Counted from the stretch's first letter, positions 29,153 to 51,281 are shown. The stretch is DNA of 64,000 nt from Candidatus Latescibacterota bacterium (GCA_965206595.1 OZ242214.1:1312001-1376000), one strand, 5' to 3'. Numbers and translations: made by a program. Notes: generated by a model not told the origin, from the letters alone.

Positions 29153-29314
29153 AATGTAGAGCCCTAAGCGCACGACAGCACCTTAGAGCGCTGTCTCCGT
29201 AAATTCGGCGCACAATACGACCCGCACATGGACGACCTTGGTCGAGGCCCCGAATCGCCACCGTGGCAAGTCTGAGGCATCTGCGGAGGCGACCAGCGAG
29301 TCGAGCGCTCCGTC

Positions 29315-29671
29315 CTGCGCCCATCGCCTGGGCTGGGCGCTGCTTGCCCGCGTGTTTCTGCCGACCCCAGCGAATGCGCAGCCTGTGGCGGGCGCCTGAA
29401 ACCATCGCCGCTCTGACCGATCCCGCCTCGATCCGGACCTACCTGCAGGGAGTAGGGCTGCCGGCGTGGGCCCCGCCTCAGCCGCTGTTGGATTTCGCCG
29501 TCTGACCTCCTTCGCGATGGGCTCCCGGCACCGGTGAGCCGTACGGAGGAGTGCGCCCTCAAGTACCAGATCGACCCCTGAAACGGGCCGAAATCAAATT
29601 TACTCTGAGCCTTCTCAAACGATTCTGGAGGACGATAAGCGATTCACCAGGGACCCTGATGGACCCTTGCG
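29315..29671 (+). mobile_element. IS91/ISCR-family remnant: transposase C-terminus plus 3' non-coding end, oriIS tip missing
   Basis: Frameshifted 'RLGWALLARVF / DPSECAACGGRLK / IAALTDPASIRTYLQGVGLPAWAP'; downstream DNA shares blocks with 35325-35506 and 42936-43159. Confidence 0.75.
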
Positions 29672-32685: not shown

Positions 32686-34317
32686 CTACCTGGCGCTGTC
32701 GCACCCCAGGACCATCACCTCGCACTGGTGCAGGGTCGGCCACGGGTCCGGGGTCTGCAGACCCTCGAGTCCGACCAGGACCAGGTTCTCCCCCCTGCGG
32801 ACCGGTGGATCCTCCACCACGAGCCAAGTGCCGTACTGGTTCTCCAGCTTGCCGGCGCCGGCGAGCGGAACGTCGCGGCCGTTGACCTGGCAGAAGATCC
32901 GCTCCATGCAGGCCTCGCAATCGGTCAGCCGCAGGCGCAGCTCGGTGCCGAGTATGCGGCCGTCGGCGAGGCCGGCTTCGATGTCGTCCTCGATGACGAG
33001 GCTCATCTCGTATCCGGAACCGCCGGTGGCGCGCGCCGGCATGCTCAGGTCGCGGGGAACCTGCGGGTAGTGGTCCCCCGGGGAGTGGTGGACGGCCCCG
33101 CCGAGGGCGGAGTCCGACACCGAATAGCTGCGGTCGCGGCGCGCCAGCCGCTGCGGATCGGCGAGGTCGGCAAGCAGGGCGAGGTGGTCGTCGTTGTACT
33201 CCTCCTCATCGAACGGGGAAGCGCGGTGGTGCCGGTAGTCGTAGTTGAAGACGTAGACCCCGGAGGCCCCCTGCTCGTACCCGTTCAGGGCCGCCCCCCG
33301 CAGGACCGCGGGCACGCCCCGGTCGTAGCCTTCGTGCGGCGAGGTCAGGTGGGTGGCGCCGTCGAAGCCGACGTAGACCGGCACCTCGCTCTCCCCGGCG
33401 CAGGCGACCGCCTCGGCGATGTCGAAACGGGCGGGACAGTAGGAGGAGGAGGAGAGCACGAAGAGGTCGGCCACCGGCTCGCGGATCCAGGCCCGGGCGT
33501 CGATGCCGATGGCGCGGGCTTCGGCAAGGCAGGGAGGTACGCGAGCGATCAGGGAGATCGGCTTTCCCTTGCGTTCCCCGTGGCCGCGCACGATGGCATG
33601 GGCCTCGCGCATGAAGCGCGTGAGGGTGTCGAGGTTGTCGAGCAGGCGCCCCGGCCGGAAGTAGGGGGGGCCGCGCATCCAGTCGACTTCGACGCCGTCG
33701 AAGTCATAGCGCTCCAGAGTCTCGTCGACGAGCCCGAGGAAGCGGTCGCGCACCTCCTCCTGCTCGTAGTCCCACTGCCAGCAGAAGTTCCAGCGGTCGG
33801 CGCCGCCGGCCCGGGTCGGGGTGGGGGAGCCGATCAGCAGGTCGGGCCGCGACTTCTTGTGGCGGCTGCGCACCTGCCACTCGCGCCCCTCGTCCGAGGT
33901 GTGGGCGTCGTTCATGCGCATCGAGGCGATCGCCGCGATGCCGTGCCGGCGGCAACCGCCGATGTAGATCCGCATCAGCTCGCGGCCGTCGGCGATGACG
34001 GCGTCCATGCAGTTGTAGAGCTGCTCGAGGCGGCTGAGCTCGAAGCCGCCCGCGGTCATCTTGCGCACCGGGTTGCCGTCGGCGTCGACGTCGGGGTCGG
34101 GGTCCCAGACCTCGGTGTCGTCTCCCCACATGGCCGAGTGCGGGCTGCCGCGCCAGACGACGTCGTCGTCGATGCCGATGAGCCCGGCGAGGGCGTCGAC
34201 GCCGGCCGGGACCAGGGCTTCGAGCTGGTGGGTGACGTCGCCGGGGTTGCGGTCCGGCAGGTAGAAGAGCATCCAGTTGCCGTCGGTGTTGAAGATCAGG
34301 CGCGGAAGTCTGGTCAT
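32686..34317 (-). CDS. GHL10/family-10-like TIM-barrel glycosyl hydrolase-like protein (intact copy)
   Basis: 'IFNTDG', 'SMRMNDAH', 'YDFDGVEVDWMR', 'LRGAALNGYEQGASGVYVFN'; paralogue of 56081-57685. Confidence 0.75.
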   Translation of the reverse strand: MTRLPRLIFNTDGNWMLFYLPDRNPGDVTHQLEALVPAGVDALAGLIGIDDDVVWRGSPHSAMWGDDTEVWDPDPDVDADGNPVRKMTAGGFELSRLEQLYNCMDAVIADGRELMRIYIGGCRRHGIAAIASMRMNDAHTSDEGREWQVRSRHKKSRPDLLIGSPTPTRAGGADRWNFCWQWDYEQEEVRDRFLGLVDETLERYDFDGVEVDWMRGPPYFRPGRLLDNLDTLTRFMREAHAIVRGHGERKGKPISLIARVPPCLAEARAIGIDARAWIREPVADLFVLSSSSYCPARFDIAEAVACAGESEVPVYVGFDGATHLTSPHEGYDRGVPAVLRGAALNGYEQGASGVYVFNYDYRHHRASPFDEEEYNDDHLALLADLADPQRLARRDRSYSVSDSALGGAVHHSPGDHYPQVPRDLSMPARATGGSGYEMSLVIEDDIEAGLADGRILGTELRLRLTDCEACMERIFCQVNGRDVPLAGAGKLENQYGTWLVVEDPPVRRGENLVLVGLEGLQTPDPWPTLHQCEVMVLGCDSAR

Positions 34318-35200
34318 CGCGGTCTCCGTTGTTTCGATTATGGGTTCCTGCCGGCGTCAGCCGGCCAAGATAGCTTACCCCCGCAGTCGCGTGAACGGAG
34401 AGCGAACATGTACCGAACCGATCTCGTCCTCAACCGGAACTTCCGCCCGGGAGCTCCCTACGGACCGGAGTAGCGGGCGCTGCTCGACTCGGAGTCGATG
34501 GCCGCGGTCAGGGAAGAGGTCGGTTCCTGGCCCGGGTACGAGCCGACCCCCCTGGTGCGGCTCGACGGCCGCGCCGCGGCCGCGGGGATTGCCCGGTTGT
34601 GGTGCAAGCACGAGGGCCCGCGTTTCGACATCGGCAGCTTCAAGCCCACCGGACCGACCTACGCCATGCTGACCGTGCTGCGCGGCGAGATCGAGAAGGC
34701 CGCCGGCGTCCGCCACGCCCCGACGCGGGAGCTGCTCGACGGCAGGTACGCCGCCGCCGGGGTCACGGTCTGCGCCGCCACCTCGGGCAACCACGGCCGC
34801 GCCCTGGCCTGGGGGGCGCGCATGTTCGGCTGCCGCTGCATCATCTACATGAACGACAAGGTGAGTTCCGGAAGGGAGGCGGTGATCGCGTCCTTCGGAG
34901 CCGAGGTGGTGCGCGTCCCCGGCTCCTTCGACCGGGCGGTGCAGCGCTCGTTCGAGGATGCCGAGGAGAACGGCTACTTCGTCATCTGCGACCGGCAGCG
35001 GCGCTATCCCGAGGTGCCGCTGCGGATCATCCAGGGGTACGCCCTGGTCGGGGAGGAGATCGCATCGCAGCTGCCACTACCGGAAGCCCCCACGCATGTC
35101 TTCGTGCCCGGGGGCAGCGGCAAGCTCGCCTCGGCGGTCTGCGCGCGCCTTTGGGAGCGCTACGGAGAGGCGCATCCGCGGGTGGTCACCGTCGAGCCGG
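34052..35200 (+). repeat. Copy 1 of a ~1.15-kb imperfect direct repeat
   Basis: Aligns with 41036-42185 from GCGGTCATCTTGCGC to GTCGAGCCGG. Confidence 0.97.
34408..35200 (+). pseudogene. dpaL: Diaminopropionate ammonia-lyase-like gene, inactivated copy
   Basis: In-frame TAG at 34471-34473 (CAA in copy 2); truncated at 35200 by an IS91-like fragment. Confidence 0.88.
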
Positions 35201-35506
35201 TCTCTCGCCGATGGAACTGCTTGAGAAGCTGGCAGCTTTGGTCCCTCCGCCCCGGTTTCATCTCCTGCGTTACCACGGGGTCCTGGCTTCGCGCGGTGAT
35301 CGCCGTAGAGTTCGCCGCTTGACCTGCCTTCTCGACCCGCCTCCGGCGCCGGCCGTACGGGGGCGTGTCCTCAACGGTCCCTCAGGCCACCGACCTGCGA
35401 GCTCTGACGAAGGACCAGCAAACGACCCTCAGGAATCTGCCGGACCCTTGCGGTGCCCTCGGCGCCTTCGCGGAGAGTCCGCAAAGGTGCCTTGATTTAC
35501 CTATAC
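35201..35506 (+). mobile_element. Internally deleted IS91/ISCR-like element ending in an oriIS-like tip
   Basis: 'LSPMELLEKLAALVPPPRFHLLRYHGVLA' (Y2 transposase motif), then the last codons/stop and a 3' end terminating GCCTTGATTTACCTATAC. Confidence 0.82.
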
Positions 35507-36052
35507 ATCTGACCGATATGCGCGATGCCGCTATCCTGGCGGTCGCCTCCGACGCCCTGCTCAGGGTCGGCGAGGTGGCCGCGCTTCAGGTCGACGACAT
35601 CGCCTTCGAGGCAGACGGCTCGGGCATTGTCACCATCCGATCCAGCAAGACCGACCAGGAAGGACGTTGAGACAAGCTGTACCTGGGGAAGACCACCGCG
35701 CAGAGAATCAAGGCATGGCTGGAGAAAGCCGGCCTCCGGGAGGGACCGTTGTTTCGCCGCGTCTTTCTGAAGGGCAGCCGCGTCGGCGACAAAAAGATGA
35801 ACTCGGACAGTCCGTCAGATCATCAAAAAGCGGTGCGCGGCCATCGGGATCGTGGGGCACGTCTCCGGCCACTCGCTACGCGTCGGCGGGGCTCAGTCGC
35901 TGGCCGCCGGCGGGGCTTCCCTACCGGAAATGCAGACCGCCGGCCGCTGGGAGTCGCCGCAGATGCCCGGACATTACGCGCGGGGCCAGCTGGCCGCCAA
36001 GGGCGCCGTGGCGCGGATCAAGTACCCTCAGGAGAGGGGGCGAAATGACTGA
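35507..36052 (+). pseudogene. Cre-like tyrosine recombinase catalytic domain, 5'-truncated, nonsense plus frameshift
   Basis: 'RDAA..LLRVGEV..SSKTDQEG', TGA at 35668, shift near 35812, 'SGHSLRVG..GRW..PGHY'. Confidence 0.85.
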
Positions 36053-37454
36053 TGGCCCTGGCACGGACTCTCCCCCCGGGACGAATGAAACGCTTCCGGC
36101 TTCGCCCGTTCCGGCCCCGCGGATTCTTGACCTGGCTGACGCCCGAGGGAAGACCCTTTCCGCGCAGGTTTGGCGCGCGGATGCCAGTGTCTTCCCGAAA
36201 ACCAAGAGAAAGTACCGATCCGCGCTGGCAAAGTTCGACGAGGCGGTTGCCGACAAACCCGTTGCCGACTCCGTAATCGCGGACTACCTCGCCGACCTGC
36301 ACGCGGCCGGAAAATCACCGGGGACGTGCAACCAGGTCGTTACTGCTCTCAAGTACCGCGCCCGGCTGCAGGGCACCCCGTTGCCGGTCGGCCCCTTAAC
36401 CCAACGGGTTCTTGCCAGGATCTGGAAGTGGCCGGAGGTCCTTTTCGCGCAGATTTGGACCTTCGCCGGCGTCTCCGATCCGGTCACCGACTCCCAGGCC
36501 GCCGGCTACCTCGCGGGCCTGCGCGCCTCCGGACAATCGCCGGCCACGTGCAGCCGGATCCTCGATGGGCTCGAGTTCCGCGCCGAGCAACAGGGCATCC
36601 CGTTTGAGGCCGGTCCTTTGACCCGACGGGCTCTTGTCGGGACCGGTGCCGCGCGGCCCGAGCTATCCGCCAAGGTCTGGGATCTCGTTGCTGCCAGTGT
36701 CGCGGAAAACACCAGGAGAACGTACGGAGCCGTACTGGCGAAATTCGACAGGGCCGTTGCCGGGGCACCTGCCACCGATGCCCTGGTCGCGGGCTACCTC
36801 GCCGGCCTGATGATGGCCGGTATTCGCCGCAAAGGCCGGGGGCGGGGTCGAGGTCAGGTCCAGGGGGTGGATTTCGCGCAAGCCCTCGCCGTGGGCGCCG
36901 CTGCCGCCGAAGACGGATTCCTTCAGGGGCTGCGCGACGCCGCGCTCATTGCGGTCATGTCGGACGGCTTGATGCGCGTCTCCGAGGTCGCCGCACTCCA
37001 GGTCGACGACATCACCTACGAACCGGACGGCACGGGCATTGTCACGGTCCGGTCCAGCAAGACCGACCAGAAAGGAACCGGAGCGGTTCAGTTCCTGGGG
37101 GCTGCCACCGTGGAGAGAATCGAGGCATGGCTGGACAAAGCCGGCCTCCAGGACGGGCCGTTGTTTCCCCGGATGCACCGTGGCGAGACGGTCGGCCAAG
37201 CCGCCCTCAGCACGGTTTCCGTCCGGAATATCATCAAACGGCGGTGCGCCGACGCCGGGATCGAGGGGGACATCTCCGGCCACTCGCTCCGGGTCGGCGG
37301 GGCTCAGTCCCTGGCCGCCGGCGGGGCTTCGGTTGTCGAAATGCAGACGGCGGGCCGCTGGGAATCGCCGCAGATGCCGGGACACTACGCACGGAGACAA
37401 CTGGCCGCCCGGGGAGCCGTCGCGCGGATCAAGTACGGTTACGGTGCTCCGTAG
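36045..37454 (+). CDS. Cre-like tyrosine recombinase with internally repeated core-binding (SAM-like) domain
   Basis: Catalytic R (MRVSE), K (SKTDQ), HxxR (HSLR), W (GRW), Y (GHY); 'D..(I/A/V)A.YLA.L' unit occurs three times; AGGAGAGG RBS. Confidence 0.9.
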   Translation: MTDGPGTDSPPGTNETLPASPVPAPRILDLADARGKTLSAQVWRADASVFPKTKRKYRSALAKFDEAVADKPVADSVIADYLADLHAAGKSPGTCNQVVTALKYRARLQGTPLPVGPLTQRVLARIWKWPEVLFAQIWTFAGVSDPVTDSQAAGYLAGLRASGQSPATCSRILDGLEFRAEQQGIPFEAGPLTRRALVGTGAARPELSAKVWDLVAASVAENTRRTYGAVLAKFDRAVAGAPATDALVAGYLAGLMMAGIRRKGRGRGRGQVQGVDFAQALAVGAAAAEDGFLQGLRDAALIAVMSDGLMRVSEVAALQVDDITYEPDGTGIVTVRSSKTDQKGTGAVQFLGAATVERIEAWLDKAGLQDGPLFPRMHRGETVGQAALSTVSVRNIIKRRCADAGIEGDISGHSLRVGGAQSLAAGGASVVEMQTAGRWESPQMPGHYARRQLAARGAVARIKYGYGAP

Positions 37455-37620
37455 GCCGCCCGGGCCAAACCCGTGCGCCCCCCCCCGGGGAGGGGGGGGT
37501 TACACTCCGTTTCAGGGGGTTGCGCTACGTGACATTTGTGATCCAGGGTAGAAATTTCTCATAAAACCCGTTTCAGCCCAGGGGTGGCGGGCTTTTCGCT
37601 GGAGCCGACCCCAATCCCCG

Positions 37621-39358
37621 TTACCGCCCCTTGCTCCACGCTCGCATGATTCGCGGCGTCCCGTACCACGCATGGCAGCCGAAACCCTTGGGCGGATCGA
37701 CCGGATCGGGTATCAGCCCTTCTTCGCGGCAGGCGACCGTCAGTTGCCTACACGCCGTCATGAAGCCCAAAAAGCCCAGATAGTAAGGCTGTCCCAGCAA
37801 GTGTGAAAACTCCAACTCGTCCACCTTCTCGGCAAAAGCCGTTATCGCACCGTCGAGCACGTTGCAGGCGAGTTCGGCGCAGATCGCATCGACCGTTCCG
37901 ATCAACCACTCCTCGTCTGCTCCAGTCACAACCGGCATGCCCAACCGCCAGCGCCCGTTTTCTAACTGAACTAAATAGCTCTCCTCGCTGTATTCCGCCA
38001 ATCTCGATCTCTCCTCTTCGTCCGCGTCGCCGAGCAAATCCTCCTCGCTTATAGGTCCCTCGCACAAGCCGCCGACAAATCGATCCAGGTCTTCGAAGCG
38101 CAGAGACTTTATACAATCGCCTCCGACCATAAGGCGCGGCTCCGCTATACTGCCCATGCCCATGTCGTCCCCCTCCACCTCCACCCCGCCAACCCGGAAA
38201 GAAGGCTCCTTTTCGACACCGCAATGGCCTACCAGATACCAAAAGTCCACCGGCCTGAGTGGATAGGTCAGAATGCGATGTTTACCCCAATTGGGCAGCG
38301 ACGACACTTGCCGCCCCAGACCACGCATGACAATCCACTCCGGCAACGCGATCCAAGCCAGTTCCTCATAGGTAAATCCCTGCCAGCCGCACAACGAAGT
38401 ATGGCTCAGGGCCTCTCTGAGCTGCGGCAGGCGGCGCTTGAGGATGGCTATGCCCTCCCGCACCGAATACACGCTCTCTTCCAGCGACAAGTACTCTTGG
38501 CGCGCCATAAAGAGAAAGGCCGTCTGATAACGACCGGGAAAGGGCTCCTCCAGTATTTCTCCTTCCACCAAGCCCGGCACGATGTCCTGCACATAGGCCT
38601 TGTCGGCATGCAACAGACGGGCTAGTTCCCCAACGCTTTTTGCCCTCTTGCGGCAGAAGTAGAGCAAGCGCCTAGCCAGCAAGCTGTTCGTCTGCCGCAG
38701 CGGATGCAGCGGATCATGCTGGTTTTCGCACTCGCCTATGACCTCGATATTAAGCGTCTCAGGTGTTTCCATTGGCATCGTCGTCTCGGGTGCCATGCTC
38801 TCCAACTCCTTTCTCAATCTTTTGCGCCCCTGGAAGAGTCGGGCCTTCACCGCCCTCACAGAAAGCCCCATCTCCTCGGAGATCTCCATAATGGATTTGT
38901 CCTCTATATGAAAGGCGGTGAAAATGCGGCGCGAAGAGTCCGACAGACTCTGCGCCGCTTCTGCGATGGCTGCCCCTATTTCACGCGATAGCAGCCGCTG
39001 CTCCGGCGTGCGTTCCCCCTCCGCTACCATCGCGTGCCGGGCGAGTAACTGATCCCGGCACTGCTGCTTATCGCACCAGTCGAGTGCCAAGCGATACATC
39101 AGCGTGCGCAGCCAAGCGTGAAAAGCGGCCCCCGTCTGCAACTCGCCAAGCCGACTCCAAGCGCGGACAAAGGTCTCCTGCAACAGATCCTGCGCCTCAT
39201 CGATCTCGCCGCCGCTCAAGGTGCAGGCATAGGGCCATAGCTGTGCCGAATGCCCGCTCGAAGAGCCGCGCAAAAGCCCATTCGTGGCCTTCCTGTGCGG
39301 CGGCCACCAAATGGGCGTCATTTACCGTCTGGCCATGGATTAGCTGATATTCTCGCAT
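37621..39358 (-). pseudogene. ECF sigma-70 factor with long C-terminal extension; one-base frameshift near 39254
   Basis: ATG 39358 gives 'DAHLVAAAQEGHEWAFARLFER', continuing after a one-base shift as 'HSAQLWPYA..DEAQDLLQETFVRAW..FHAWL' and region 4 'EISEEMGLSVRAVKARLFQGRKRL'; could be a sequencing indel. Confidence 0.8.
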
Positions 39359-39382
39359 CGCACTTTACGCCTTTCTGTCTCC

Positions 39383-39410
39383 TAAGACGGGGCGACGGCG
39401 TTAGAGGTTA
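39383..39410 (-). promoter_or_regulatory. ECF-type promoter, probably autoregulatory
   Basis: Minus strand TAACC-N16-CGTCTTA directly upstream of the ECF gene start. Confidence 0.65.
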
Positions 39411-39598
39411 TATTGGGCGAGAAAAAAATGGCAACAACAGGGGGGTTCACCTTGCGGTGATGGGAGATGGATCCAACTGCAAGAAATTACAACTACAATT
39501 TTAACAGACACTTAAAAGCTAGGCGCCTACAGAGCGGGGCGGGAAGGCTCCCAAGCCTTGATCCAACCGACCCCGGTTACTTAAACTCCCCTTGGAGT

Positions 39599-39646
39599 AA
39601 AAAAAGCGGGCAGCAGTCCCCTGATCGACGATCAGCGACTGCCCGC
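39599..39646 (-). terminator. Intrinsic terminator for the small minus-strand ORFs
   Basis: GCGGGCAG...CTGATCG-A-CGATCAG...CTGCCCGC stem next to A7 (U-tract on minus strand). Confidence 0.7.
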
Positions 39647-39665
39647 CAGAGCCGGGGGAGGCACC

Positions 39666-40147
39666 TTACCTGGTCAACGCCTGGCGCAGGTCCTCCAAAT
39701 CGGTGAATCGCATCTGCGCGAGCTCGGCGACCATTGCCAGCCCCTGGTCATCGGCCAATTCGGGAGGCAGGACGGTTATCATCGTCCCGCTCGACAACCG
39801 GGTGGCCGACGTCGCATTTTGCTGTCCCCAGGAGCTGGCGGGGCAGGCATGAGTCGCCCTGCCTCCCTGCGTAGCGCGAACCACCACGGCCAGTAACCAC
39901 ACCCCCCGTCCGGTTGCTTCAGGCCGACGAGGTGGCCCTTCCGGACTTTCAGTTCGGTGCCGGGGACCAGGGGAACGTGAGGGATCTCCCCGAGGTCCTT
40001 CCGGACGCGGGCGAGGTAGGACTTCGAGCGCTTGTTGGCTAACCCCCCTTGGCGTATCCCTGAGCAGATGTCCGAGCAGGTTTTGACGTGCGGCCGCACT
40101 TTCCGCCGGGCGGCGGGAATGGTTTTTCTGCATTCACTGCACTTCAT
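39666..40147 (-). CDS. Small hypothetical protein with CxxC...CxxxC zinc-ribbon N-terminus; probable frameshift in G-run near 39905
   Basis: 'MKCSECRKTIP...KTCSDICS'; AAAGGAAAGG RBS; alternative C-terminus in frame of ORF 39666-40133. Confidence 0.5.
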
Positions 40148-40202
40148 ATGTGCGCCCCTTTCCTTTCTTTTTGGTATCCTCTGAGGCCGTCCCGCCCCCT
40201 CG

Positions 40203-40457
40203 TCAAGACAGGGATCCCAGGAGGCGGAAGATGGCGTTGAGGATGCGGCGGCCCAACGGTTCGGTTGGGTTGCGCTCGAGCCACCGCGCTTTGAGCAGCT
40301 CGCTTTCCCGCCGCCGGCGGATTGCGGCCTCCAGATCGGTCGCGGCGGCGGCCTCGAAATCCCGATGCGTAAGGGGTTTCCGTTTCATCGCTTCTCCGTC
40401 TTCTCCGTCTTTGCGGGGGCCGCCCATTCGTTTCTCCTCGTTTCTCCTCATTCCCAA
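40203..40457 (-). CDS. Small hypothetical protein
   Basis: Short helical ORF co-oriented with the zinc-ribbon ORF; true start may be 'MKRKPLT'. Confidence 0.35.
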   Translation of the reverse strand: MGMRRNEEKRMGGPRKDGEDGEAMKRKPLTHRDFEAAAATDLEAAIRRRRESELLKARWLERNPTEPLGRRILNAIFRLLGSLS

Positions 40458-40559
40458 AAGATAAGATCGTTTCCCCCCTCGGAAGGTGCCAAGCCCCCGG
40501 TCAGCTCCTCGCCGCCCGGCAGCTCCCGTTTTCCGGGCCGGTCCGAGGGGGAAGGGGAA

Positions 40560-41035
40560 TTATCGGTTGTGGTTGTGCCGCGATTCGGCCCGGTGAAGCC
40601 GCGCCTGCAGCTGCTGGTTCTGCTTGCGTAGCGCGCAGACCCGCTCTCCCAGCGCCTGAACGGCGTCGTGGCGGCGCTTCACAGCGCCCCAGGTGGACCG
40701 CTCGACGGCGGTGCCGGTCGGTCGGCGTTGCCACACGGTGACGGATCCCGTCCTCGTCGGTGAGGGTCAGGGTATCCCCTGCGACCTCGAACTGGAACAC
40801 CAGCTCCTCGGCGATCTCCTCCGCGCTCGGTTCGGAGCCGGTCAGCTCCTTCGTCGCGGCCACCAAGGCGTCCACGAGCAGGTCGATCAGCTCGTCCCGG
40901 GTCAGCCCGTTGAACCGCAGGGTGGCCGGATCGACGACGACCCGCAGCAGGGGGTTGCCCACGTCCCGGAGTAGGTCACGCCCAGAGTGTCCCCGGCTCC
41001 CGTGATGGTGCCGGAGAACGAGAACCGGCCGTCCT
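40560..41035 (-). pseudogene. Decayed lipocalin-like secreted protein with C-terminal TAVERSTWGAVK motif
   Basis: Three frames join to 'DGRFSFSGTITG..VTYSGTWAT / LLRVVVDP..FEVAGDTLTLTDEDG / VTVWQRRPTGTAVERSTWGAVKR'. Confidence 0.55.
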
Positions 41036-41301
41036 GCGGTCATCTTGCGCACCGGGTTGCCGTCGGCGTCGACGTCGGGGTCGGGGTCCCAGACCTCGGT
41101 GTCGTCCCCCCACATGGCCGAGTGCGGGCTGCCCCGCCAGACGACGTCGTCGTCGATGCCGATGAGTCCGGCGAGGGCGTCGACCCCGGCAGGGACCAGG
41201 GCTTCGAGCTGATGGGTGACGTCGTCCGGATTGCGGTCCGGCAGGAAGAAGAGCATCCAGTTGCCGTCGGTGTTGAAGATCAGGGGCGGAAGTCTGGTCA
41301 T
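41036..41301 (-). pseudogene. 5' fragment of the GHL10-like gene (duplicate)
   Basis: MTRLPPLIFNTDG...PVRKMTAG, then unrelated sequence. Confidence 0.88.
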
Positions 41302-42185
41302 CGCGGTCTCCGTTGCTTCGATTATGGGGCTCCTGCCGGCGCCGGCCGGCCAAGATAGCTTACCCCGCAGTCGTGTGAAACGGAGAGCGAACATGTACCG
41401 GACCGACCTCGTCCTCAACCGGAACTTCCAGCCGGGAGCCCCCTACGGCCCGGAGCAACAGGCGCTGCTCGACTCGGAGACGATGGCCGCGGTCAGGGAA
41501 GAAGTGGGCTCCTGGCCCGGGTACGAGCCGACCCCCCTGGTGCGGCTCGACGGCCGCGCCGCGGCCGCGGGAATTGCCCGGTTGTGGTGCAAGCACGAGG
41601 GCCCGCGTTTCGACATCGGCAGCTTCAAGCCCACCGGACCGACCTACGCCATGCTGACCGTGCTGCGCGGCGAGATCGAGAAGGCCGCCGGCGTCCGCCA
41701 CGCCCCGACGCGGGAGCTGCTCGACGGCAGGTACGCCGCCGCCGGGGTCACGGTCTGCGCCGCCACCTCGGGCAACCACGGCCGCGCCCTGGCCTGGGGG
41801 GCGCGCATGTTCGGCTGCCGCTGCATCATCTACATGAACGACAAGGTGAGTTCCGGAAGGGAGGCGGTGATCGCGTCCTTCGGAGCCGAGGTGGTGCGCG
41901 TCCCCGGCTCCTTCGACCGGGCGGTGCAGCGCTCGTTCGAGGATGCCGAGGAGAACGGCTACTTCGTCATCTGCGACCGGCAGCGGCGCTATCCCGAGGT
42001 GCCGCTGCGGATCATCCAGGGGTACGCCCTGGTCGGGGAGGAGATCGCATCGCAGCTGCCACTACCGGAAGCCCCCACGCATGTCTTCGTGCCCGGGGGC
42101 AGCGGCAAGCTCGCCTCGGCGGTCTGCGCGCGTCTTTGGGAATGCTACGGAGAGGCGCATCCGCGGGTGGTCACCGTCGAGCCGG
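41036..42185 (+). repeat. Copy 2 of the ~1.15-kb direct repeat
   Basis: Matches 34052-35200 at an offset of 6984-6985 bp. Confidence 0.97.
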
Positions 42186-42595
42186 AGGCCTCGGCCTGCC
42201 TGCGCGAGAGCGCCCTCGCCGGCAGGGCGGTGGAAGTGGGGGGCGACGCGAGCACGGTCATGGACGGGCTGGTCGTCGGCAAGGCCTGCGTCAACGCCTG
42301 GACGATCCTGGGGGCTGGGGCCTTCGCCTTCATGACGGTGGAGGACCGTGCCGCGACCGACGCCATGCGCCAGGCCGCCGAAGGGGCGGACGGGGACCCC
42401 GGGGTCGTGCTCGGCGACACCGGGAGCGCCGGCTGGGCAGGGTTCCTCGCGGCGTCGAGCGACCCTGGTTTGCGCGAGCAGCTGGGGTTGGACTCCGACA
42501 GCCGCGTGGTGGTGGTGGCGACCGAAGGGGCTACCGACCCGGAGGTGTACCGAGAGATCGTGGGCAGGAGCCCCGAGGAGGTGGAGGGGAGATAA
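41393..42595 (+). CDS. dpaL: Diaminopropionate ammonia-lyase-like PLP enzyme (intact copy)
   Basis: 'YEPTPL', 'KHEGPRFDIGSFK', 'ATSGNHGRALAWGA', 'IIQGY', 'THVFVPGGSG', 'ATEGATDPEVY'. Confidence 0.85.
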   Translation: MYRTDLVLNRNFQPGAPYGPEQQALLDSETMAAVREEVGSWPGYEPTPLVRLDGRAAAAGIARLWCKHEGPRFDIGSFKPTGPTYAMLTVLRGEIEKAAGVRHAPTRELLDGRYAAAGVTVCAATSGNHGRALAWGARMFGCRCIIYMNDKVSSGREAVIASFGAEVVRVPGSFDRAVQRSFEDAEENGYFVICDRQRRYPEVPLRIIQGYALVGEEIASQLPLPEAPTHVFVPGGSGKLASAVCARLWECYGEAHPRVVTVEPEASACLRESALAGRAVEVGGDASTVMDGLVVGKACVNAWTILGAGAFAFMTVEDRAATDAMRQAAEGADGDPGVVLGDTGSAGWAGFLAASSDPGLREQLGLDSDSRVVVVATEGATDPEVYREIVGRSPEEVEGR

Positions 42596-42779
42596 CCAGG
42601 GAAGTCACCCTCCCCTTGGCCGCCCTGTCTGGTCGGCAGATGATCCCAAGGTCTCGCACGTGACCATCGGCACGGTCTTGGAACGGCATAAGGTCACCTC
42701 CAACAGACCACACCTGGAAGGAGTCGAAGGATCCGGGCTTCTCCTCCCCAAAAAGCCCCTGCCCAGCTTCCCTGTGCAA

Positions 42780-42915
42780 CTTTTTCGACGTAGACCAAGA
42801 TCTCCGAACAGATGTTTCGGGCCAGAGCGTAGTGGTCTTGGTGGGGGTGCGAGATCACGCCTCCCAGCAAGCTGCCATCCGGCTCCTGAAAACCAGAAAC
42901 CTGAGGCAGCAGGCC
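42780..42915 (-). pseudogene. Internal fragment of an MBL-fold metallo-hydrolase
   Basis: 'LLPQVSGFQEPDGSLLGGVISHPHQDHYAL' (HxHxDH motif). Confidence 0.6.
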
Positions 42916-42935
42916 CTCTTCCTCTTTCCTCCAGA

Positions 42936-43159
42936 TGCCTTCTCGACCCGTCGCCGTCGCCGGGCGTACGGCTGGGTGGGCCCTCAACGGACCCTCAGGC
43001 CCCGGATTGATCCGGATACGGGCCGACGGCAACCAAACTGTACTGCGAACTCGGTCGAAGGACTGGCAAACGATTGTCACTCAGGGGAGTTGCCGGACCC
43101 TTGCGGAGCGCTGTCCGCTTTGACCGAGAGTCCAAAAAGGCGCCTCATTTTTCCTATAC
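42936..43159 (+). mobile_element. Non-coding IS91/ISCR-like oriIS end module
   Basis: Shares TGCCTTCTCGACCCG, CCTCAACGGxCCCTCAGGCC, TGCCGGACCCTTGCGG, GAGAGTCC and terminal CCTATAC with 35325-35506. Confidence 0.78.
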
Positions 43160-43384
43160 TTCGGCGAAGCATCCCTGCCAAGACGGCGTCGAGACCTAGA
43201 CCCAGACGCGGCTGCCGGACGGCAGTCCGGCGCGGCCGTGAAAGGCGTCGGCTTGCCAGACGGCGGGGAACGCCGGGACAAGAGCTAAGCCTGTAGGGAA
43301 CGCAAGCGTCGAATTATCTTGCCCGAAGGAGGTATGTCGGGCTATTGGGGTGATGCAATCTCCCCCAAAGGAGAGAATCTCGGG

Positions 43385-44152: not shown

Positions 44153-44311
44153 CTCGCCCCATCATTCTCTGCAATGGTGCCGAGATGACGCCGGGGAAGG
44201 CCGCGGAGTCCCTGTATCGGCTAGACTATCTGGATGAGGCCACAAGGAATGTCAAACTACTACTCCCTGACTTCGTCAAAGGGGTGTATCACCTACCCGA
44301 CCGATTCTTAG
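44149..44311 (+). pseudogene. 5' stub of a putative QueC/QatC-like gene cut by IS1380
   Basis: 'MTRPIILCNG...RNVKLLLPDFVKGVYHLPDRFL|' stops at the IS end; family call from recalled N-terminal pattern only. Confidence 0.5.
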
Positions 44312-46171
44312 CCCTTGTTATTCATGGAATTTTAGTGGAGAGGGCTGTACTGGGTGCCTCCCATGCTTAGATTTCAGAGGGAAACACAAGGCAGTATCGC
44401 CCTTTGAACCCATCACACAGTAGGACACCCAATGGGTGAATTACCGTCACACACCGAGTCCGAGCAAGCCGGGCCGATTCAGCCGTCTTTCAACCGCTCC
44501 ATCCACATCGAAGCCCGCCCCACCCACCTTGGCAGCGACACCGGTGCGCTGATGTTGCGTCAACTGCTCGAACACAGCCGGGTTCTGGATTGGCTCGACG
44601 CCCACTTCGAGGATCTCCGTACCCAAGACCAGATCACGCACCCGCTGCCGGAGCTGCTGCGCACACAGATCGTGCTGCTGGCACAGGGCTGGACCCACGC
44701 CGCCGACGCCGACGCGTTGCGCCAAGATCCGATCCTGCGTCTGGCGGTCAGCGATCGCAAAGGGCAGGCGCCGTTGCGCAGCGGCGACGAAGACCGGCCG
44801 CAGGGACTGGCCAGTCAGCCGACGCTGTCGCGCCTGCTCGAGCAAGCCTCGACTGCCTATAACCGCGAGGTGTTGGAGGAAGCCGTCCTGCGCAGCGCCC
44901 GGTCTCGTTGCCGGCTGCTGGAAGGACGGATGAAATACGAGGAGTTGGCCGTCGACATGGATGCCCTGCCGATGCCGGCGCACGGGCACCAGGCGGGGGT
45001 CGAATACAACGGCTACTTCCACGCCTCGGGGTACCATCCCCTGCTCCTCGGCTCGGCGCAGACGGGCGATTTCTTCGGTGCCGTGCTGCGGCCGGGCAAC
45101 GTGCACGCCCATGAGGGCGCCTCAGAGGCTCTCGGCAAGCGCTTGGACTGGATTCAGTCGCATCTGGCCCGGCGCCTCATCCTGCGCTTCGACGCGGCCT
45201 CGGTGAGCGGGTCTTTCCTGAGTGAGCTGGAAGCGCGGGCCGACACCTCGTACGTGGCGCGCATCAAGAAGAATGCGCGCCTGGAGGAGCTGGCTCGTGC
45301 CTGGGTGGAAGGCTATCAGCAGGAGCTGGCGCAGCACCCGGAAGAGCTGCGGGAAGAGGGTTTTCGCTGTCGCGAGCTGCGTTATCAAGCCAGGTCCTGG
45401 GCGCAGCCCCGGCGGGTGGTGTTGGTCCTGGTCCCTTCCGAGACGGAAGAGCTGCCCATCGCCCGCCACTTCTTCCTGATCACCGACCAGAGTCCCCAGA
45501 CGATGAGCGGCCGCGACCTGGTCGCCTTTTATCGTCAGCGCGGCCTTTTCGAGCGCATGCTCGGCGAGTTGAGCTCCACCCTCCAGCCTCAGCTCTCCTC
45601 TACCACCCGTCGCAAGCAACACTACCGGGGTCGAGAGCCGCGTCAGCGCACCCCGTCCCGGGATGCCTTCGCTGCCAACCAGGCGCTTCTGACCTTGAAC
45701 CTGCTGGCCTACAACCTGCTTCACCTGGGCCGCCAGGCCGCCGAACGCGCCGAGGCCCGACGCGGGCGGCCCCGCACATACGGACGCTCGACGACGGCCC
45801 TGAGCCTGGACAGTTTTCGACGGCGCTACCTGCGCCTGCCGTCCCGCGTCACCTTGCATGGGCGCAGGGTGGGCGTCATCCTGACCCAAGGGACGGCGGC
45901 TGCCTGGGATCGTCTGTGGAGATTTCTGGCCACGCTCAAACCGGTGGACGCGGCGATGGCGTAAGCGCAGGCCGGGTCGGTCGGGATGATGGGCTCGCAA
46001 AGGCAAGCGTCTTCGAGAAGGCGCGTACAATTTCAACAAGGTCGGTAGAGATAAGGAGACGGCTCTACCCAAAAAGCCGACTATAGAAGGGACGCAAGCC
46101 TCTGAGGCTAAGCAAAGGGGTCTCGGAAGCGCCTATGTCCGCTTATGCGCGGGTTGAATGAATAACAAAGG
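44312..46171 (+). mobile_element. IS1380-family insertion sequence
   Basis: Terminal IRs CCCTTGTTATTCAT / ATGAATAACAAAGG (13/14); flanks CTTAG and CTAAG, no direct target duplication. Confidence 0.92.
44432..45964 (+). CDS. IS1380 DDE transposase
   Basis: 'SDTGALML', 'DADALRQDP', 'LASQPTLSR', 'FNG/YNGY..YHPL', 'LRPGNVH', 'RFDA', 'FYRQRG..E', 'FAANQ'. Confidence 0.92.
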   Translation: MGELPSHTESEQAGPIQPSFNRSIHIEARPTHLGSDTGALMLRQLLEHSRVLDWLDAHFEDLRTQDQITHPLPELLRTQIVLLAQGWTHAADADALRQDPILRLAVSDRKGQAPLRSGDEDRPQGLASQPTLSRLLEQASTAYNREVLEEAVLRSARSRCRLLEGRMKYEELAVDMDALPMPAHGHQAGVEYNGYFHASGYHPLLLGSAQTGDFFGAVLRPGNVHAHEGASEALGKRLDWIQSHLARRLILRFDAASVSGSFLSELEARADTSYVARIKKNARLEELARAWVEGYQQELAQHPEELREEGFRCRELRYQARSWAQPRRVVLVLVPSETEELPIARHFFLITDQSPQTMSGRDLVAFYRQRGLFERMLGELSSTLQPQLSSTTRRKQHYRGREPRQRTPSRDAFAANQALLTLNLLAYNLLHLGRQAAERAEARRGRPRTYGRSTTALSLDSFRRRYLRLPSRVTLHGRRVGVILTQGTAAAWDRLWRFLATLKPVDAAMA

Positions 46172-46256
46172 CTAAGTAATCGCCATAGCTCACCCCGTCA
46201 TCGCGTAGGGTGGTGCAGAAGCTCCAGACTTTGGAGACGATGGGAGCGGTGTTCAT
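46172..46256 (-). pseudogene. hsdM: First 28 codons of type I RM methyltransferase, cut by IS1380
   Basis: MNTAPIVSKVWSFCTTLRDDGVSYGDYL|, a typical HsdM N-terminus; ATGA overlap with upstream gene. Confidence 0.88.
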
Positions 46257-47872
46257 GTGGGGGCATCTCTTGTCTTGAGTCGCACAGCCAAAGCCTCGCC
46301 GCCGGCAGTTCGGCGATAGCGCTGGTGGCGACTTTGCGGTTTGTCCGGGAGGGTCATTTCGATCAGACCGGCCCTGAGGGCGGGGCCAAGGTATGCTTCC
46401 ACGAAGTGAGGCCGGTTGCTTATGCCCAGGATGTCCTGTAGCTGAGGACGGTTCATTTCCCCCGTGAGGATCGAGATCAGGCGTTCAACATGTTCTGTGA
46501 CATGTATGGTCTCATGTATGGTCTCATGTACGGTGTCTTGTGGGGCGTTCTGACCCTTCTTCTTGTTTTTCAATGACTTATCTTGTTCGGTCTCATGTTC
46601 GGTCGCCGCAAGCGAGGCCCGTTCATGGACCGGTAGGCGCACTCGAAACCAAGTGCGGTCGTCGTCGCTCTCAAAAATTGGATCCGGGGAGCCGTTCTGC
46701 CGCATGGCCCGGAAATCTTCGGCACGCCGGTTGAGCGCGCCTCGGCGAGGTCGAGTTCTTTCAGAAACTCACCAATACGCCGGTTCCGGTAGCGCCTGCT
46801 CACGGCCTGCCCCTTCTTGAAGTCATCCATACGGATGGAGCGGTCCGCACCCGGATAACTCAAGACCAGCAACTCTTCGCGGGTGATCCGAACTTCAACC
46901 GGCTCCCGCTCCTCGTATGAGCGATGGTAGATGTCGTTCACCAGCGCCTCTTCGATGGCACCAATCGGAAAATTCCAGAATCGCTCGGCCTCCGGCTTGT
47001 GGGGATACTTGACGACGATTTCCTTCAGGTAGTTCCGCTCAATGTAGCTGATCGCCTCGCTGAGAATGATGGATAACGGCCCGCGGAACTCCTTCTCCTC
47101 GAACTGATCGCCGCCCGGCCCATCGGGAAACCACACGACATCGATCTGGGTGGCCGGAAAAAACCTGTCCGGCCGCTCATTGAAGAACAGCAGACCGACG
47201 TTCTTCGGAAACATCGCCTCGGGCGGGCCGCCGACGATATTCAGGCGCTTGCCCAAGTCCTCAACAGATAGGCCCTCTGCTTCCGCTGCCAGTTCCGCTG
47301 CCGATTTCCCCGAGAAACTCACGGATCAGCCGATGGGACAGGTCATCAAGCGAAGCAGTCTGGCGATAGCGGTCGTCAAAAGGTACTGTGGCCGCCAGAC
47401 TGAGCAGCTCACGCTCGTCCTGACCCTTGGCGCGAACCGTGCTGCTGTGTCTGCGCATGAAGTAGGCCCAATCGTTGCGCTCCGCACTCAGATTCACTTT
47501 GGCTTTGTAGGGACGGGTTTCGCCGCCGGGTACCCAGAGGACGAGGATGGTCTGGCCATCGACGTTATAGGTAGCGGTGAGGGGATGGTAATGCGGCTGT
47601 ATGGCGGCATGCCCCAGATTGAGTAGTTCCTTCTGTATCGCATCGATGGCATCGGGCCTGATGCCCTTGGGCGGCAAAATTGGGCGGCCGTTTTGTTCCT
47701 CGACGCCCAGGACCACGTAACCGCCGCCTAGATTGTGGAAGTCGTTGGCAAAGGCGCAGATGGTGTGCAGCACGCTCTGCGGATTCCAACCAGCTTTGTA
47801 CTCGATGCGTTCGCCTTCGATGGGGCGCTGGCGCAGCAGGTGGTCGATGTTGATGGGAAGTTTGCCGGTCAT
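46253..47872 (-). pseudogene. AlbA_2 (Schlafen-like) + HATPase_c_4 (RecG-C-like) + wHTH protein, two frameshifts
   Basis: 'EGERIEYKAGW..TICAFAND..GGYVVLGV', 'EEALVN..YHRSY', 'YRNRRIGEFLKELDL', 'PDKPQSRHQRY'; shifts near 47293 and 46712. Confidence 0.85.
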
Positions 47873-49422
47873 GCTGTTGCCGTTATGCTTCTGCGTTTTG
47901 CCCGCGTGTTGTTTTGAGACCGTGCAGCTTTTTCGGCTTTGATGCGCTCAAGAAGGCTGGATGCAAGCTCGTCATCAGGGTCTTGCGGGACGAGTTGGCC
48001 GGAGAAGGCTTTTTTGAGGGTGGATTGGCGCAGCATCTCCGCCTGATTCAAGGCCGAATCGATCTCTCGCTCCTGCTGCTCGATCGCCGCGAATCGCTCC
48101 TCCAACAGTCGGACAATTTCTTGCTGTTCGGCCAGAGAGCAGAGAGGGAGCGCGATCTGAGCAAACTTGAATGCACTTAAGTGGTTGATCCCCACGCCGC
48201 CTGCAACTTGAGCAAATTTCCCGCTTACATAGAAGAAGCGATACAACCAAAGCAGATAAACCGCATAGTCACGACAATGTGGTTGATGCCTGATAACGGT
48301 GTTTTGAAAGCAGCAATTCGGGATCTGATCGTTCCAAATCGCTGGCTTTCCGACTTGCGCTGCGCTGCCGGATGCTTCGGACAGCACTAAATCACCCTTT
48401 TCCAAACAGTATGCGCTTAGTTCGTGAGGAAGGAAGTCCATGTCGAGGATGTCGTCCAAATCCAAACCTTGTTTCGTAATGTTCGCAGCTCGTATGTACT
48501 TTGTAGGGTAATCCTTCGACCTGTTCTTTGGCGAACGTTGTCGACCGAGTTGGACGATTCCTACAGACTCGACGGTCAACCGTAGCCAACCATTCGGCAG
48601 TGCTTCTAGGTGGGCAATCTCCTCTTCTGTCATCGTTGAAACTGACTTGGGCATTCTTGGTCGAGCCGGCTTCTTGCCTGACTTGCCGCCTTCCTCCCAT
48701 TTCTTGACGGTGGCCTCCCACCCTTGGAGTTGCCGCTCGTAGCGCGTTTTTCGCTCCTGCTTGATGCGAGTGAGTAATTGTTCGGGCGTCTCAAGCTTGC
48801 CTTTGTTCTCTCCGCGCCACTGGGCCGTGAGCTTGCCTTCGAAGGCGTGCTTGAGCACGGCTTGGCGGTAGATATTGAGCTTCGCCCGCGCCGTCTTCAG
48901 GCTCTCGACGCCCTTGTCCAGTTCGGAAAATAGTTCCTCGATCTTGGCGACGATGCGGCGTTGTTCATTGAGAGGAGGTAGTCCAAAGTGGAGACCTTCA
49001 ACAAATCCCTTGGTAATGGCTTTGAATGTCGAGCCGGTGCCCTTGCCCGAAATCTCGGGTTCGATGCTTCTAAAAAGATACAAGAGGAACTTCGGAGCTA
49101 TCCCACCGCAAGAATGAATAGCTGCTAGACCACGGCCAATACAGCAATCTTGTTGCGCGAGATTGGTCGGTCCGACTGGGGCTCTAACTGACAGGAGAGT
49201 CGCACCCTGTTTGGCGATTTTGTTGGGCTGTGAGCAGTACATATTGACCGTTGGGTATAGATCTCCAAACTCCGCCTTTCCTTGGAAGAAGGGGAGACCG
49301 TCGCCAGAACGGTTGTAGGTTGTTGACGGCGGTGACTGCCCCATCACGATGTGCGCGAAGTCGGGCAGAACGCATTGTTGCCATCCGTTTGGAATCATGG
49401 TACTCACAAAATCGGTCGTCAC
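47869..49422 (-). CDS. hsdS: Type I RM specificity subunit
   Basis: 'IPNGW', two TRDs, 'PPLNEQRRIVAKIEELFSELD', 'VLKHAFEGKLT', 'LKKAFSGQLVPQDP'. Confidence 0.93.
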   Translation of the reverse strand: MTTDFVSTMIPNGWQQCVLPDFAHIVMGQSPPSTTYNRSGDGLPFFQGKAEFGDLYPTVNMYCSQPNKIAKQGATLLSVRAPVGPTNLAQQDCCIGRGLAAIHSCGGIAPKFLLYLFRSIEPEISGKGTGSTFKAITKGFVEGLHFGLPPLNEQRRIVAKIEELFSELDKGVESLKTARAKLNIYRQAVLKHAFEGKLTAQWRGENKGKLETPEQLLTRIKQERKTRYERQLQGWEATVKKWEEGGKSGKKPARPRMPKSVSTMTEEEIAHLEALPNGWLRLTVESVGIVQLGRQRSPKNRSKDYPTKYIRAANITKQGLDLDDILDMDFLPHELSAYCLEKGDLVLSEASGSAAQVGKPAIWNDQIPNCCFQNTVIRHQPHCRDYAVYLLWLYRFFYVSGKFAQVAGGVGINHLSAFKFAQIALPLCSLAEQQEIVRLLEERFAAIEQQEREIDSALNQAEMLRQSTLKKAFSGQLVPQDPDDELASSLLERIKAEKAARSQNNTRAKRRSITATA

Positions 49423-50111
49423 CTATGCAGCCAACGCCTCATTCAATTCATCAATCACGCTATCCATCCGGTCGCCAAAGATCCTGTACATCTGTCCTAA
49501 GCCGCCCTTGCCATCGAATGGAGCCATGTCCAGATCGTCGCGGCCCAGATGAAACGAGGTGATGATGTGGTCACGGATCATGCGCAGCCATTCCATCTGC
49601 TCCTCATTGAACTTCTCTCCGCTTCCACTGTGATGCGTCATGATCCAATTCTGAAAATTGCGGCGCACGGTTTCCGAATAGGGAGACAGTGTCGCGTCGA
49701 TACCGCAGACGCGGCGGATCAACGCCACGAGCGCGGTCAGTTCACTGGCCGGTTGGCTGCCCTTGTATTCATCCAGCAAGGAGTATGCCTGCCAGACCCG
49801 CAAAGGGGCCAGTCGAGGCTGGTCGCTCTTGAGCTTGTCGAAAACCTCGCGGATCATCTCGAATGTCAGCTCTCTGCGCCTGTGCGGTTGGGTGTAGAAG
49901 ATGGTCAGGGCTTCAATCATATCTCGATTCGCTTCCAAATACTGGCGGAACTCCTGTGCCATGGCTTCGGCATTCTCGTTCGCGTCGCCTTCCCATTCGG
50001 CGCGCTCCACGGTGTCCAGGCTGTCATGGTCGATGATCTGTTCCTTGTCGCGACGAATCGAGTCGATCAGCTCGACCAACTCGCCGTTGAACACGCTGGC
50101 CGCGTCACGGA

Positions 50112-51200: not shown

Positions 51201-51281
51201 AGGTCTCTCCTTTCAGAAGGGGGATAAGGGAAACCTACGGCACTTTCAATTGTTTGTACAGTTAATTACACGACATGACAC
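50115..51281 (-). mobile_element. IS630-family insertion sequence
   Basis: IRs GTGTCCTGTCG / CGACATGACAC; TA duplicated at 50113-50114 and 51282-51283 within CTAG. Confidence 0.95.

Follow-up and report, generated by a model that had tools for sequence, protein, structure and literature searches.

The window analysed here, a stretch of 64,000 nucleotides from a Candidatus Latescibacterota bacterium (GCA_965206595.1 OZ242214.1:1312001-1376000), contains a direct repeat of 1.16 kb, called S below, whose two copies enclose the decayed end of an IS91-family element and 5.5 kb of DNA abutting it (the cargo), and divide a pair of divergent genes, one for a hydrolase-like protein and the other, dpaL, for diaminopropionate ammonia-lyase. 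When the window is compared with itself by blastn, 34045-35200 (the left copy, L) matches 41028-42185 (the right copy, R) with 96.721% identity over 1159 columns, with 4 gaps and E = 0, which excludes chance, and a repeat search of the window recovers the same match as three ungapped pieces. A first-pass annotation of this DNA had given the repeat as 34052-35200 and 41036-42185, coordinates that are 7-8 bases short on the left but describe the same repeat.

Each copy of S holds the 5' end of the hydrolase gene, the divergent intergenic region and the 5' part of dpaL. L belongs to a whole hydrolase-like gene coding for 543 amino acids (32686-34317, minus strand) and to the first 234 codons of dpaL (34498-35200, plus strand), which match only positions 3-193 of the 295 of the PALP profile and in which homology to the family ends at 35200. 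R belongs to a fragment with residues 1-90 of the hydrolase (41032-41301, minus strand; tblastn, 96.7% identity over 90 amino acids) and to a whole dpaL of 370 amino acids (41483-42595, plus strand), which matches positions 5-399 of the 402 of NF006058 at 360 bits, the cut-off being 276. The truncation is reciprocal, as had been annotated: the whole hydrolase gene stands on the left with 234 codons of dpaL, and the whole dpaL stands on the right with 90 codons of the hydrolase gene.

Uninterrupted site, flanks and junctions

Thirty related genomes, whose records are metagenome-assembled genomes, were searched, and two of them, G001 and G002, belong to the same genus. The empty hydrolase-dpaL site that the first-pass annotation proposed to look for is present in both. 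G002 has an AKR gene, the hydrolase gene, dpaL and the tip of an IS91 tail in one run, and in G001 metabolic genes that span 3.7 kb (X) separate the AKR gene from the hydrolase gene, dpaL comes next, 181 bp from the hydrolase gene and without interruption, and a nearly whole IS91 copy stands 2.3 kb further on. Both dpaL and the AKR gene lie beside a relative of the hydrolase gene at 2 of 23 loci, which are just those of the two same-genus genomes. In the window, an IS91 tail with an oriIS-like tip (42936-43162, plus strand), which has 84-94% identity to many copies, lies 3' of the whole dpaL and occupies the position of the nearly whole IS91 copy of G001 and of the tip remnant of G002. The outer flanks are native: 6633-32620 of the window is syntenic with 595000-570963 of G001 contig C10, and 46786-53487 with 451630-446070 of the same contig. 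The uninterrupted relatives and the syntenic flanks together indicate an insertion into a native locus, in which the right IS91 tail is native and the inner 7 kb were inserted.

The genome is a single contig of 7.05 Mb without N, with a completeness of 92.9% and a contamination of 4.5%. Public runs, which were examined as Logan contigs and come from three studies under three organism labels, contain 0.66-0.92 of the sampled words of 33500-43300. The three junctions of the inserted DNA, at 35200|35201, 35509|35510 and 41027|41028, recur in these contigs: record 10 of X16 (35157-35728) bridges the first two and its record 15 (40638-41184) the third, while record 19 of X17 (35171-35728), which reaches 30 nt to the left of 35200, bridges 35509|35510, and record 24 of X17 (40638-41092) bridges 41027|41028. 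Short contig joints whose sides measure 21-31 letters were set aside as probable artefacts of repeats.

The family of the hydrolase-like protein is uncertain, and it is possibly distantly GHL10-like. The label "GHL10-like", which the first-pass annotation had used, is loosely supported by 3 of the 68 homologues of the protein, which carry PF02638; the protein itself gives no Pfam match at E<=0.01, and its match to GH18 is weak (E 0.02). It has 94-95% amino acid identity to its orthologues in G001 and G002. The protein is also a member of a large paralogous family, which is found at 56150-57343 of the window and at about 25 other sites of the genome with 22-43% identity. A metagenome scan with this protein found two distant loci only.

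IS91-family sequences and the cargo

L abuts the decayed 3' end of an IS91-family element (35201-35509, plus strand), which is made of a C-terminal fragment of the transposase gene (35202-35287), an internal deletion and a non-coding tail (35308-35509) with an oriIS-like tip. That an IS91-family remnant lies here with its tip facing the cargo had been recognized from the sequence alone, and the first-pass annotation had let its reading depend on the relation of 35201-35506 to IS91. The segment is indeed of the IS91 family: 35187-35294 matches positions 144-179 of the 183 of Pfam Y2_Tnp (E 2.4e-6, 28.1 bits, cut-off 20.9), and 35202-35287 matches 14 other IS91-like copies in the genome over at least 86 columns with 88-92% identity. 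The tip at 35509, which ends ...TTTACCTATACATC, resembles the ...TTTT(A/T)CCTATACTT tips of other copies, and among the 21 ends listed there are 16 further copies whose tip is clear and reads ...CCTATACTT(T/C/G), which the ...CCTATACATC of the remnant resembles. After CCTATA, the other copies continue with CTTT, CTTC or CTTG and the left remnant with CATC; the target tetranucleotide of IS91, of the CTTG/GTTC type, and the cleavage sites of the element are described in a part of PMC13181058. Placed on a 1492-bp IS91 copy as reference, the remnant corresponds to positions 885-970 and 1249-1487, which reveals the internal deletion. It begins at position 885 and includes no terIS end, and it retains 36 transposase codons instead of a whole Y2_Tnp transposase gene.

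Two of the junctions involve this remnant. At 35509|35510 the IS91 tip stands directly against the middle of a tyrosine recombinase gene (rec1), and to judge from its sequence the junction looks like a true IS91 insertion end. At 35200|35201 the interior of dpaL is joined, without microhomology, to the interior of the transposase gene, and this join is a deletion scar.

The left remnant differs from the native tail on the right. Likeness between the tails is 66%, with 42 gaps, compared with 96.7% for the S repeats that adjoin them, and the 86-bp transposase fragment of the remnant reaches 96.5-97% identity with copies on G001 contig C11 but does not exceed 92% with any copy of the genome in which it lies, so the left remnant is no copy of the native right IS91. 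The G001 copies that have this closest transposase fragment have no hydrolase gene, dpaL or cargo beside them. Within the tail, the part at 35359-35490 has its closest match (88%) in the tail that follows a third hydrolase-dpaL copy of the genome, which is described below. The local IS91 family is, as far as its copies indicate, old and dead in this genome: none of the 19 genome matches to Y2_Tnp covers the whole profile, and left ends of the family are found at only 4-5 places. A fuller relative occurs in G001 (Y2_Tnp positions 1-177 of 183, 74 bits). A third IS91-family remnant in the window lies in the same orientation at 29284-29562, about 3 kb to the left of the hydrolase gene, and corresponds to reference positions 1027-1317 of 1492 with 76% identity and no clean tip.

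The cargo (35510-41027) begins with rec1 (35510-36030, plus strand), the 3' half of a tyrosine recombinase gene that has lost its 5' part at the IS91 tip and contains an in-frame stop and a frameshift. The rec1 region is 77% identical to 36931-37436, and its tblastn match is split across two frames. A second tyrosine recombinase gene, rec2 (36113-37454, plus strand), has an open catalytic domain (Phage_integrase, E 1.2e-15) and four further paralogues by tblastn. Next comes the gene of an ECF-type sigma factor of 566 amino acids (37621-39321, minus strand), which has Sigma70_r2 and r4_2 domains (TIGR02937, 77 bits), a C-terminal extension of about 390 amino acids of no known family and a comparatively low G+C content (57-58%). 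No paralogue of this sigma factor above 30% amino acid identity is found in its own genome, the genus genomes that were searched contain nothing closely related to it, and DNA matches occur solely in the class-level relatives G020 and G024. Its low G+C and its lack of near kin speak for a foreign origin of the cargo. The cargo ends with a small frameshifted gene of the DksA/TraR zinc-finger type (39675-40177, minus strand), which has weak zf-dskA_traR matches and to which a G001 homologue of 176 amino acids matches in two frames, and with geneZ (40501-41027, minus strand), a small gene of a module like those of plasmids or integrative and conjugative elements (ICEs), with a frameshift at a C5 run near 40950.

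Paralogous modules with a recombinase gene, the zinc-finger gene and geneZ lie at 5.997-6.006 Mb of the genome and in G001, where they adjoin genes for ParB-like and SSB proteins, as the G001 homologue of geneZ also does, and these neighbours mark the cargo as a plasmid/ICE-like fragment. The recombinases, ECF sigma factor and small open reading frames (ORFs) that had been annotated as cargo are all there. Several of these genes are broken, however, and the cargo is a decaying fragment of a plasmid/ICE-like module with one foreign sigma gene, not a set of captured working genes. The recombinases were also considered as part of the IS91 element, which was rejected, as the recombinase paralogues are not beside IS91 copies.

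In rec2, the catalytic domain is preceded by three tandem N-terminal SAM-like modules (36113-36866), an unusual internal triplication in which 36156-36299 resembles 36663-36809 and 36265-36420 resembles 36487-36642. At two junctions, ORFs run from one gene into another. The truncated dpaL reads out of frame into the IS91 remnant, which gives an ORF at 34498-35322 with residues 1-234 of dpaL and 40 residues read from the remnant. The first codon of geneZ is 4 nt from 41027|41028, and geneZ is fused to the hydrolase 5' fragment in an ORF at 40501-41418, which joins the hydrolase N-terminus, an out-of-frame linker of 28 residues and residues 29-121 of geneZ. These two chimeric ORFs are a pitfall for annotation.

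Other mobile DNA surrounds the locus. In the interval from dpaL to the right IS91 tail, a repeat of about 130 bp (42625-42754) has many copies in relatives (at least 8 each in G013 and G016) and one at 4030263-4030398 of the genome, and another repeat (42773-42924) recurs at genome 2244750-2245020 and on G001 contig C11; both are possibly like miniature inverted-repeat transposable elements. An insertion sequence (IS) at 44305-46173 codes for a DDE_Tnp_1_4 transposase of 510 amino acids; its other full-length copies in the genome number more than 25 and are at least 97.8% identical, most of them above 99.6%, and this near-identity indicates recent activity. At 50111-51284 there is a copy of an insertion sequence of 1173 bp, of which about 25 near-identical copies occur genome-wide. 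The block of about 100 kb that follows dpaL and IS91 in G001 and G002 is now at 2.40-2.51 Mb of the genome and not at 43163 onwards in the window, and it is bounded by an IS91 tail (2508902-2509141) and a copy of the 1.87-kb IS found at 44305-46173 (2403042-2404907); its displacement is a large rearrangement at IS copies. If a dpaL-IS91 unit had made a local hop, the DNA from 43163 onwards should be the 5' neighbour that geneZ lacks; this idea was rejected, since that DNA has 51-54% G+C and nothing homologous.

Origin of the insertion

The locus is probably, though far from certainly, the product of a homologous insertion of IS91-tagged foreign DNA. In this explanation, a fixed fossil insertion of 6,983-6,985 bp would have entered a native locus with the AKR gene, the hydrolase-like gene, dpaL and IS91. 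The incoming DNA would have carried a copy of S, which an old deletion had joined to roughly the final 300 bp of an IS91-family element, and the 5.5-kb plasmid/ICE-like fragment that abuts the oriIS-like tip. Its entry would be by homologous recombination with the resident locus, most likely through one crossover of the Campbell type between that locus and a circle of about 7 kb, which would duplicate S and leave the intact hydrolase gene on the left and the intact dpaL on the right. The part of IS91 would be limited to an earlier insertion into the recombinase gene, the element being now dead. The repeats would have become mosaic afterwards, when gene conversion acted among the genome's three hydrolase-dpaL copies. 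An IS91 end is found neither at 35201, in the interior of the transposase gene, nor at 41027; this excludes one-step transposition and makes homology-dependent insertion the simplest last step. Site-specific integration by the rec2 recombinase was rejected, as it would leave short att repeats and not a repeat of 1.16 kb. Since one intact hydrolase gene and one intact dpaL remain, the insertion seems to have cost no gene function. The two copies of S could recombine and excise the insert.

The third hydrolase-dpaL copy, B, lies at 4,088,285-4,091,248 of the genome, and its S (4089687-4090842) is near-identical to L. A frameshift interrupts its hydrolase gene, and its dpaL departs from the profile at position 333 of 402. 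The copy has the order of G001, with X, the hydrolase gene and dpaL, and is colinear with it at 96%. The region around it (4,084,748-4,094,612) comprises X genes, for a luciferase-like monooxygenase and PhyH, the hydrolase gene, dpaL, 3.2 kb of other DNA and an IS91 tail that is truncated. Another IS91 fragment (4084004-4084442) stands before this region, and the surrounding DNA at 4.07-4.11 Mb is rich in IS91 sequences. When S is aligned across L, R and B, 42 columns vary; the odd one is R at 32, L at 6 and B at 4, and over 34588-35147 all three are identical. Beyond 35200, R differs from B by 5-6%. Two of the sites at which B is odd, 35178 and 35182, are just before the end of the L homology at 35200, and their position suggests a gene conversion between L and B that was later than the truncation of L. 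Copy B, the second IS91 tail (42936-43162), the gene conversion and the nature of the cargo as a decaying mobile module all lay outside the first-pass annotation.

Several observations weigh against the insertion of a circle by one crossover. The 38 differences between L and R are unevenly placed, with 35 in 34045-34587 (6.4%), none in 34588-35147 and 3 in 35148-35158, and L follows B almost perfectly from about 32891 to about 35170, which starts outside S. This pattern of divergence misfits a simple crossover, so that extra conversion events must be assumed, and after these the divergence between L and R can be used neither to date the event nor to place the crossover. Gene conversion among the three copies, B included, blurs the history of the locus. 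No match that crosses any of the three junctions was found in the 30 relatives, nor was a circle, a donor element or a precursor found, and no piece among the public-run contigs spans both repeats. At 41027|41028 the microhomology is just 1-2 nt, and there is no convincing IS91 tetranucleotide to account for the join of the cargo to the start of S.

A full pathway of the ISCR1 type, which would give IS91 a much larger part, is unlikely. It supposes that an active IS91 element read through its terIS and carried the 5' segment of dpaL and the hydrolase gene, as a one-ended unit, into the recombinase gene of another element, and that a rolling circle from oriIS was then rescued by homologous recombination. 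The order of repeat, IS91 3' end, cargo on the oriIS side and repeat is that of ISCR1-linked class 1 integrons, a model with a circle and homologous recombination is set out in parts of PMC6218425, PMC3575428 and PMC7707992, and a section of PMC13181058 gives one-ended transposition of IS91 a frequency of 1-10%. An IS91 tail lies downstream on the same strand at all three hydrolase-dpaL copies of the genome and in both G001 and G002, which would make the hydrolase-dpaL segment terIS-side DNA of the kind that is carried by read-through, and the likeness of 35509|35510 to a true insertion end also agrees with this pathway. However, rolling-circle replication heads from oriIS away from the cargo and would not by itself bring the cargo into a circle. 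The remnant has just 36 transposase codons and no terIS, and since no Y2_Tnp match in the genome is whole, any transposase must have been at work earlier or in a different host. A CTCG is found in the intact gene 2 nt to the left of the boundary of S, but as a footprint it was rejected because it is off the junction and the terIS cleavage site of the local family is not defined by its 4-5 left ends; GTTC, of which the minus strand has two occurrences close to the cargo end at 41027 and within the cargo, is likewise off the junction. The layout is also found at a single IS91 tip of the genome, whereas ISCR1 recurs with many cargoes, and a passage of PMC6218425 describes ISCR transposition, including that of ISCR1 itself, as never demonstrated experimentally. 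Of the ISCR-type capture put forward by the first-pass annotation, the layout and the homology-dependent last step are supported, as are the uninterrupted site and the native flanks, and the rolling-circle origin is not supported.

Less probable again than the ISCR1-type pathway, a linear fragment of the copy-B type, with the hydrolase gene, the truncated dpaL, the IS91 remnant and the cargo, could have recombined homologously near 32890 and been joined illegitimately at 41028, which would replace about 1.15 kb and duplicate S. The likeness of L to B fits this, with 0-2 differences per 200 columns up to about 34090, 12 variable columns within S and a divergence of 8% to the left of about 32891, as do the 88% of the left IS91 tail to that of B and the arbitrary positions of 41027|41028 in both partners. 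Yet a recent origin from B predicts about 99% identity for the tails, far above the value found, the B-odd sites at 35178 and 35182 are better accounted for by a later conversion between the left copy and B, and a donor with the junction of truncated dpaL and IS91 remnant is absent from the 30 relatives.

A local tandem duplication that ran from the 5' end of the hydrolase gene through the cargo, with later deletions in both copies and without a foreign circle, is very improbable. Duplications of this sort are frequent, and ISs have rearranged this genome extensively, but the cargo would need a native place 3' of dpaL and IS91, where G001 and G002 have other DNA, the two IS91 remnants should be copies of one element, which their 66% likeness and 42 gaps contradict, and a second copy of the cargo must have vanished without a trace. 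Least credible of all is an assembly artefact, in which strains with and without the insert would have been merged into one contig: relatives are represented by metagenome-assembled genomes, this genome itself shows 4.5% contamination, and the two repeats are not linked on any public-run contig, but the contig is single and without N, its three junctions recur in contigs of the public runs, which come from three studies under three organism labels, and the 38 differences between the repeats let long reads tell the copies apart.

The structure is a real, fossil and now inert rearrangement, ordinary in its kind. As it stands, it is a worked example of how dead insertion sequences and paralogous copies reshape the IS-rich chromosome of an uncultured, symbiont-type bacterium, in which foreign DNA was probably inserted by homology with one intact copy of each gene kept, and conversion among three copies followed.

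Comparison with ISCR1 and other systems

In the complex class 1 integrons of ISCR1, as described in the literature, an IS91-like element that lacks its left end is joined on its terIS side to a conserved segment, and variable DNA lies on the oriIS side and is followed by a partial second conserved segment. The locus in the window has this same layout, with a conserved segment, an IS91-like end whose oriIS is toward variable DNA and a partial second segment. The final step of the ISCR1 model published in PMC6218425, PMC3575428 and PMC7707992, the homologous recombination of a circle, is also the one that is preferred here. There are differences too. ISCR1 has a whole transposase gene, while the element here is reduced to 36 codons and a gapped tail. 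The repeated segment here is an ordinary metabolic locus of two genes, the cargo is a decaying mobile module and the host is an uncultured Latescibacterota chromosome. ISCR1 recurs with many cargoes, and in PMC6218425 a set of 1127 sequences is reported to fall into 93 groups by the first downstream gene. Here the layout is unique: when IS91 tips were surveyed for at least 1 kb of upstream non-IS DNA that is repeated within 25 kb downstream, it was found at 1 of 24 tips, with no recurrence with different cargoes. The further units of repeat, oriIS, cargo and repeat that the first-pass annotation had hoped to find across the genome did not appear, and neither this survey nor the 19 incomplete Y2_Tnp matches support its view that the capture process operates here. 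The capture model for ISCR elements was reportedly proposed by Toleman et al. in 2006.

An environmental counterpart of the complex class 1 integron, in which an IS91-family element of an uncultured sponge-associated phylum read through terIS into the segment of dpaL and the hydrolase gene and the circle was rescued homologously, is a doubtful identification. If it were true, the ISCR1 route of gene gain would work outside clinical Proteobacteria and on ordinary metabolic loci, it may explain the IS91 tails at all three hydrolase-dpaL copies and the pairing of both genes in this genus only, and the rolling-circle reading would make the locus a rare case of ISCR1-type capture that is neither clinical nor proteobacterial. 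A narrow search of the literature on Latescibacter transposases in a sponge setting found nothing related.

The IS91-linked capture of non-resistance genes in environmental bacteria is already published for sdpA of Sphingobium herbicidovorans, where a part of PMC5737581 describes an IS91-family one-ended transposition unit with a sequenced circle of 11 kb and proposes repeated neighbouring DNA and circular forms. That unit is like the present one in having an IS91-family element beside non-resistance genes in an environmental bacterium. The Sphingobium copies of IS91 are whole and the circle was sequenced, whereas here the element is a stump and the circle would be a past intermediate, and the DNA that lies between the repeats here is that of the oriIS side and not, as in Sphingobium, that of the terIS side.

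A further parallel is Campbell-type integration, in which one homologous crossover inserts a circle, such as a non-replicating plasmid that carries a chromosomal fragment. Such an integration leaves direct repeats on both sides of the insert, and a reciprocal truncation if the shared segment is internal to two genes. Compared with that type, the circle at this locus would be reconstructed from its product and the repeats would be mosaic through later conversion with a third copy. The direct repeats and the reciprocal truncation are exactly as seen in the window, and the uninterrupted site in the relatives and the native outer flanks agree with it as well.

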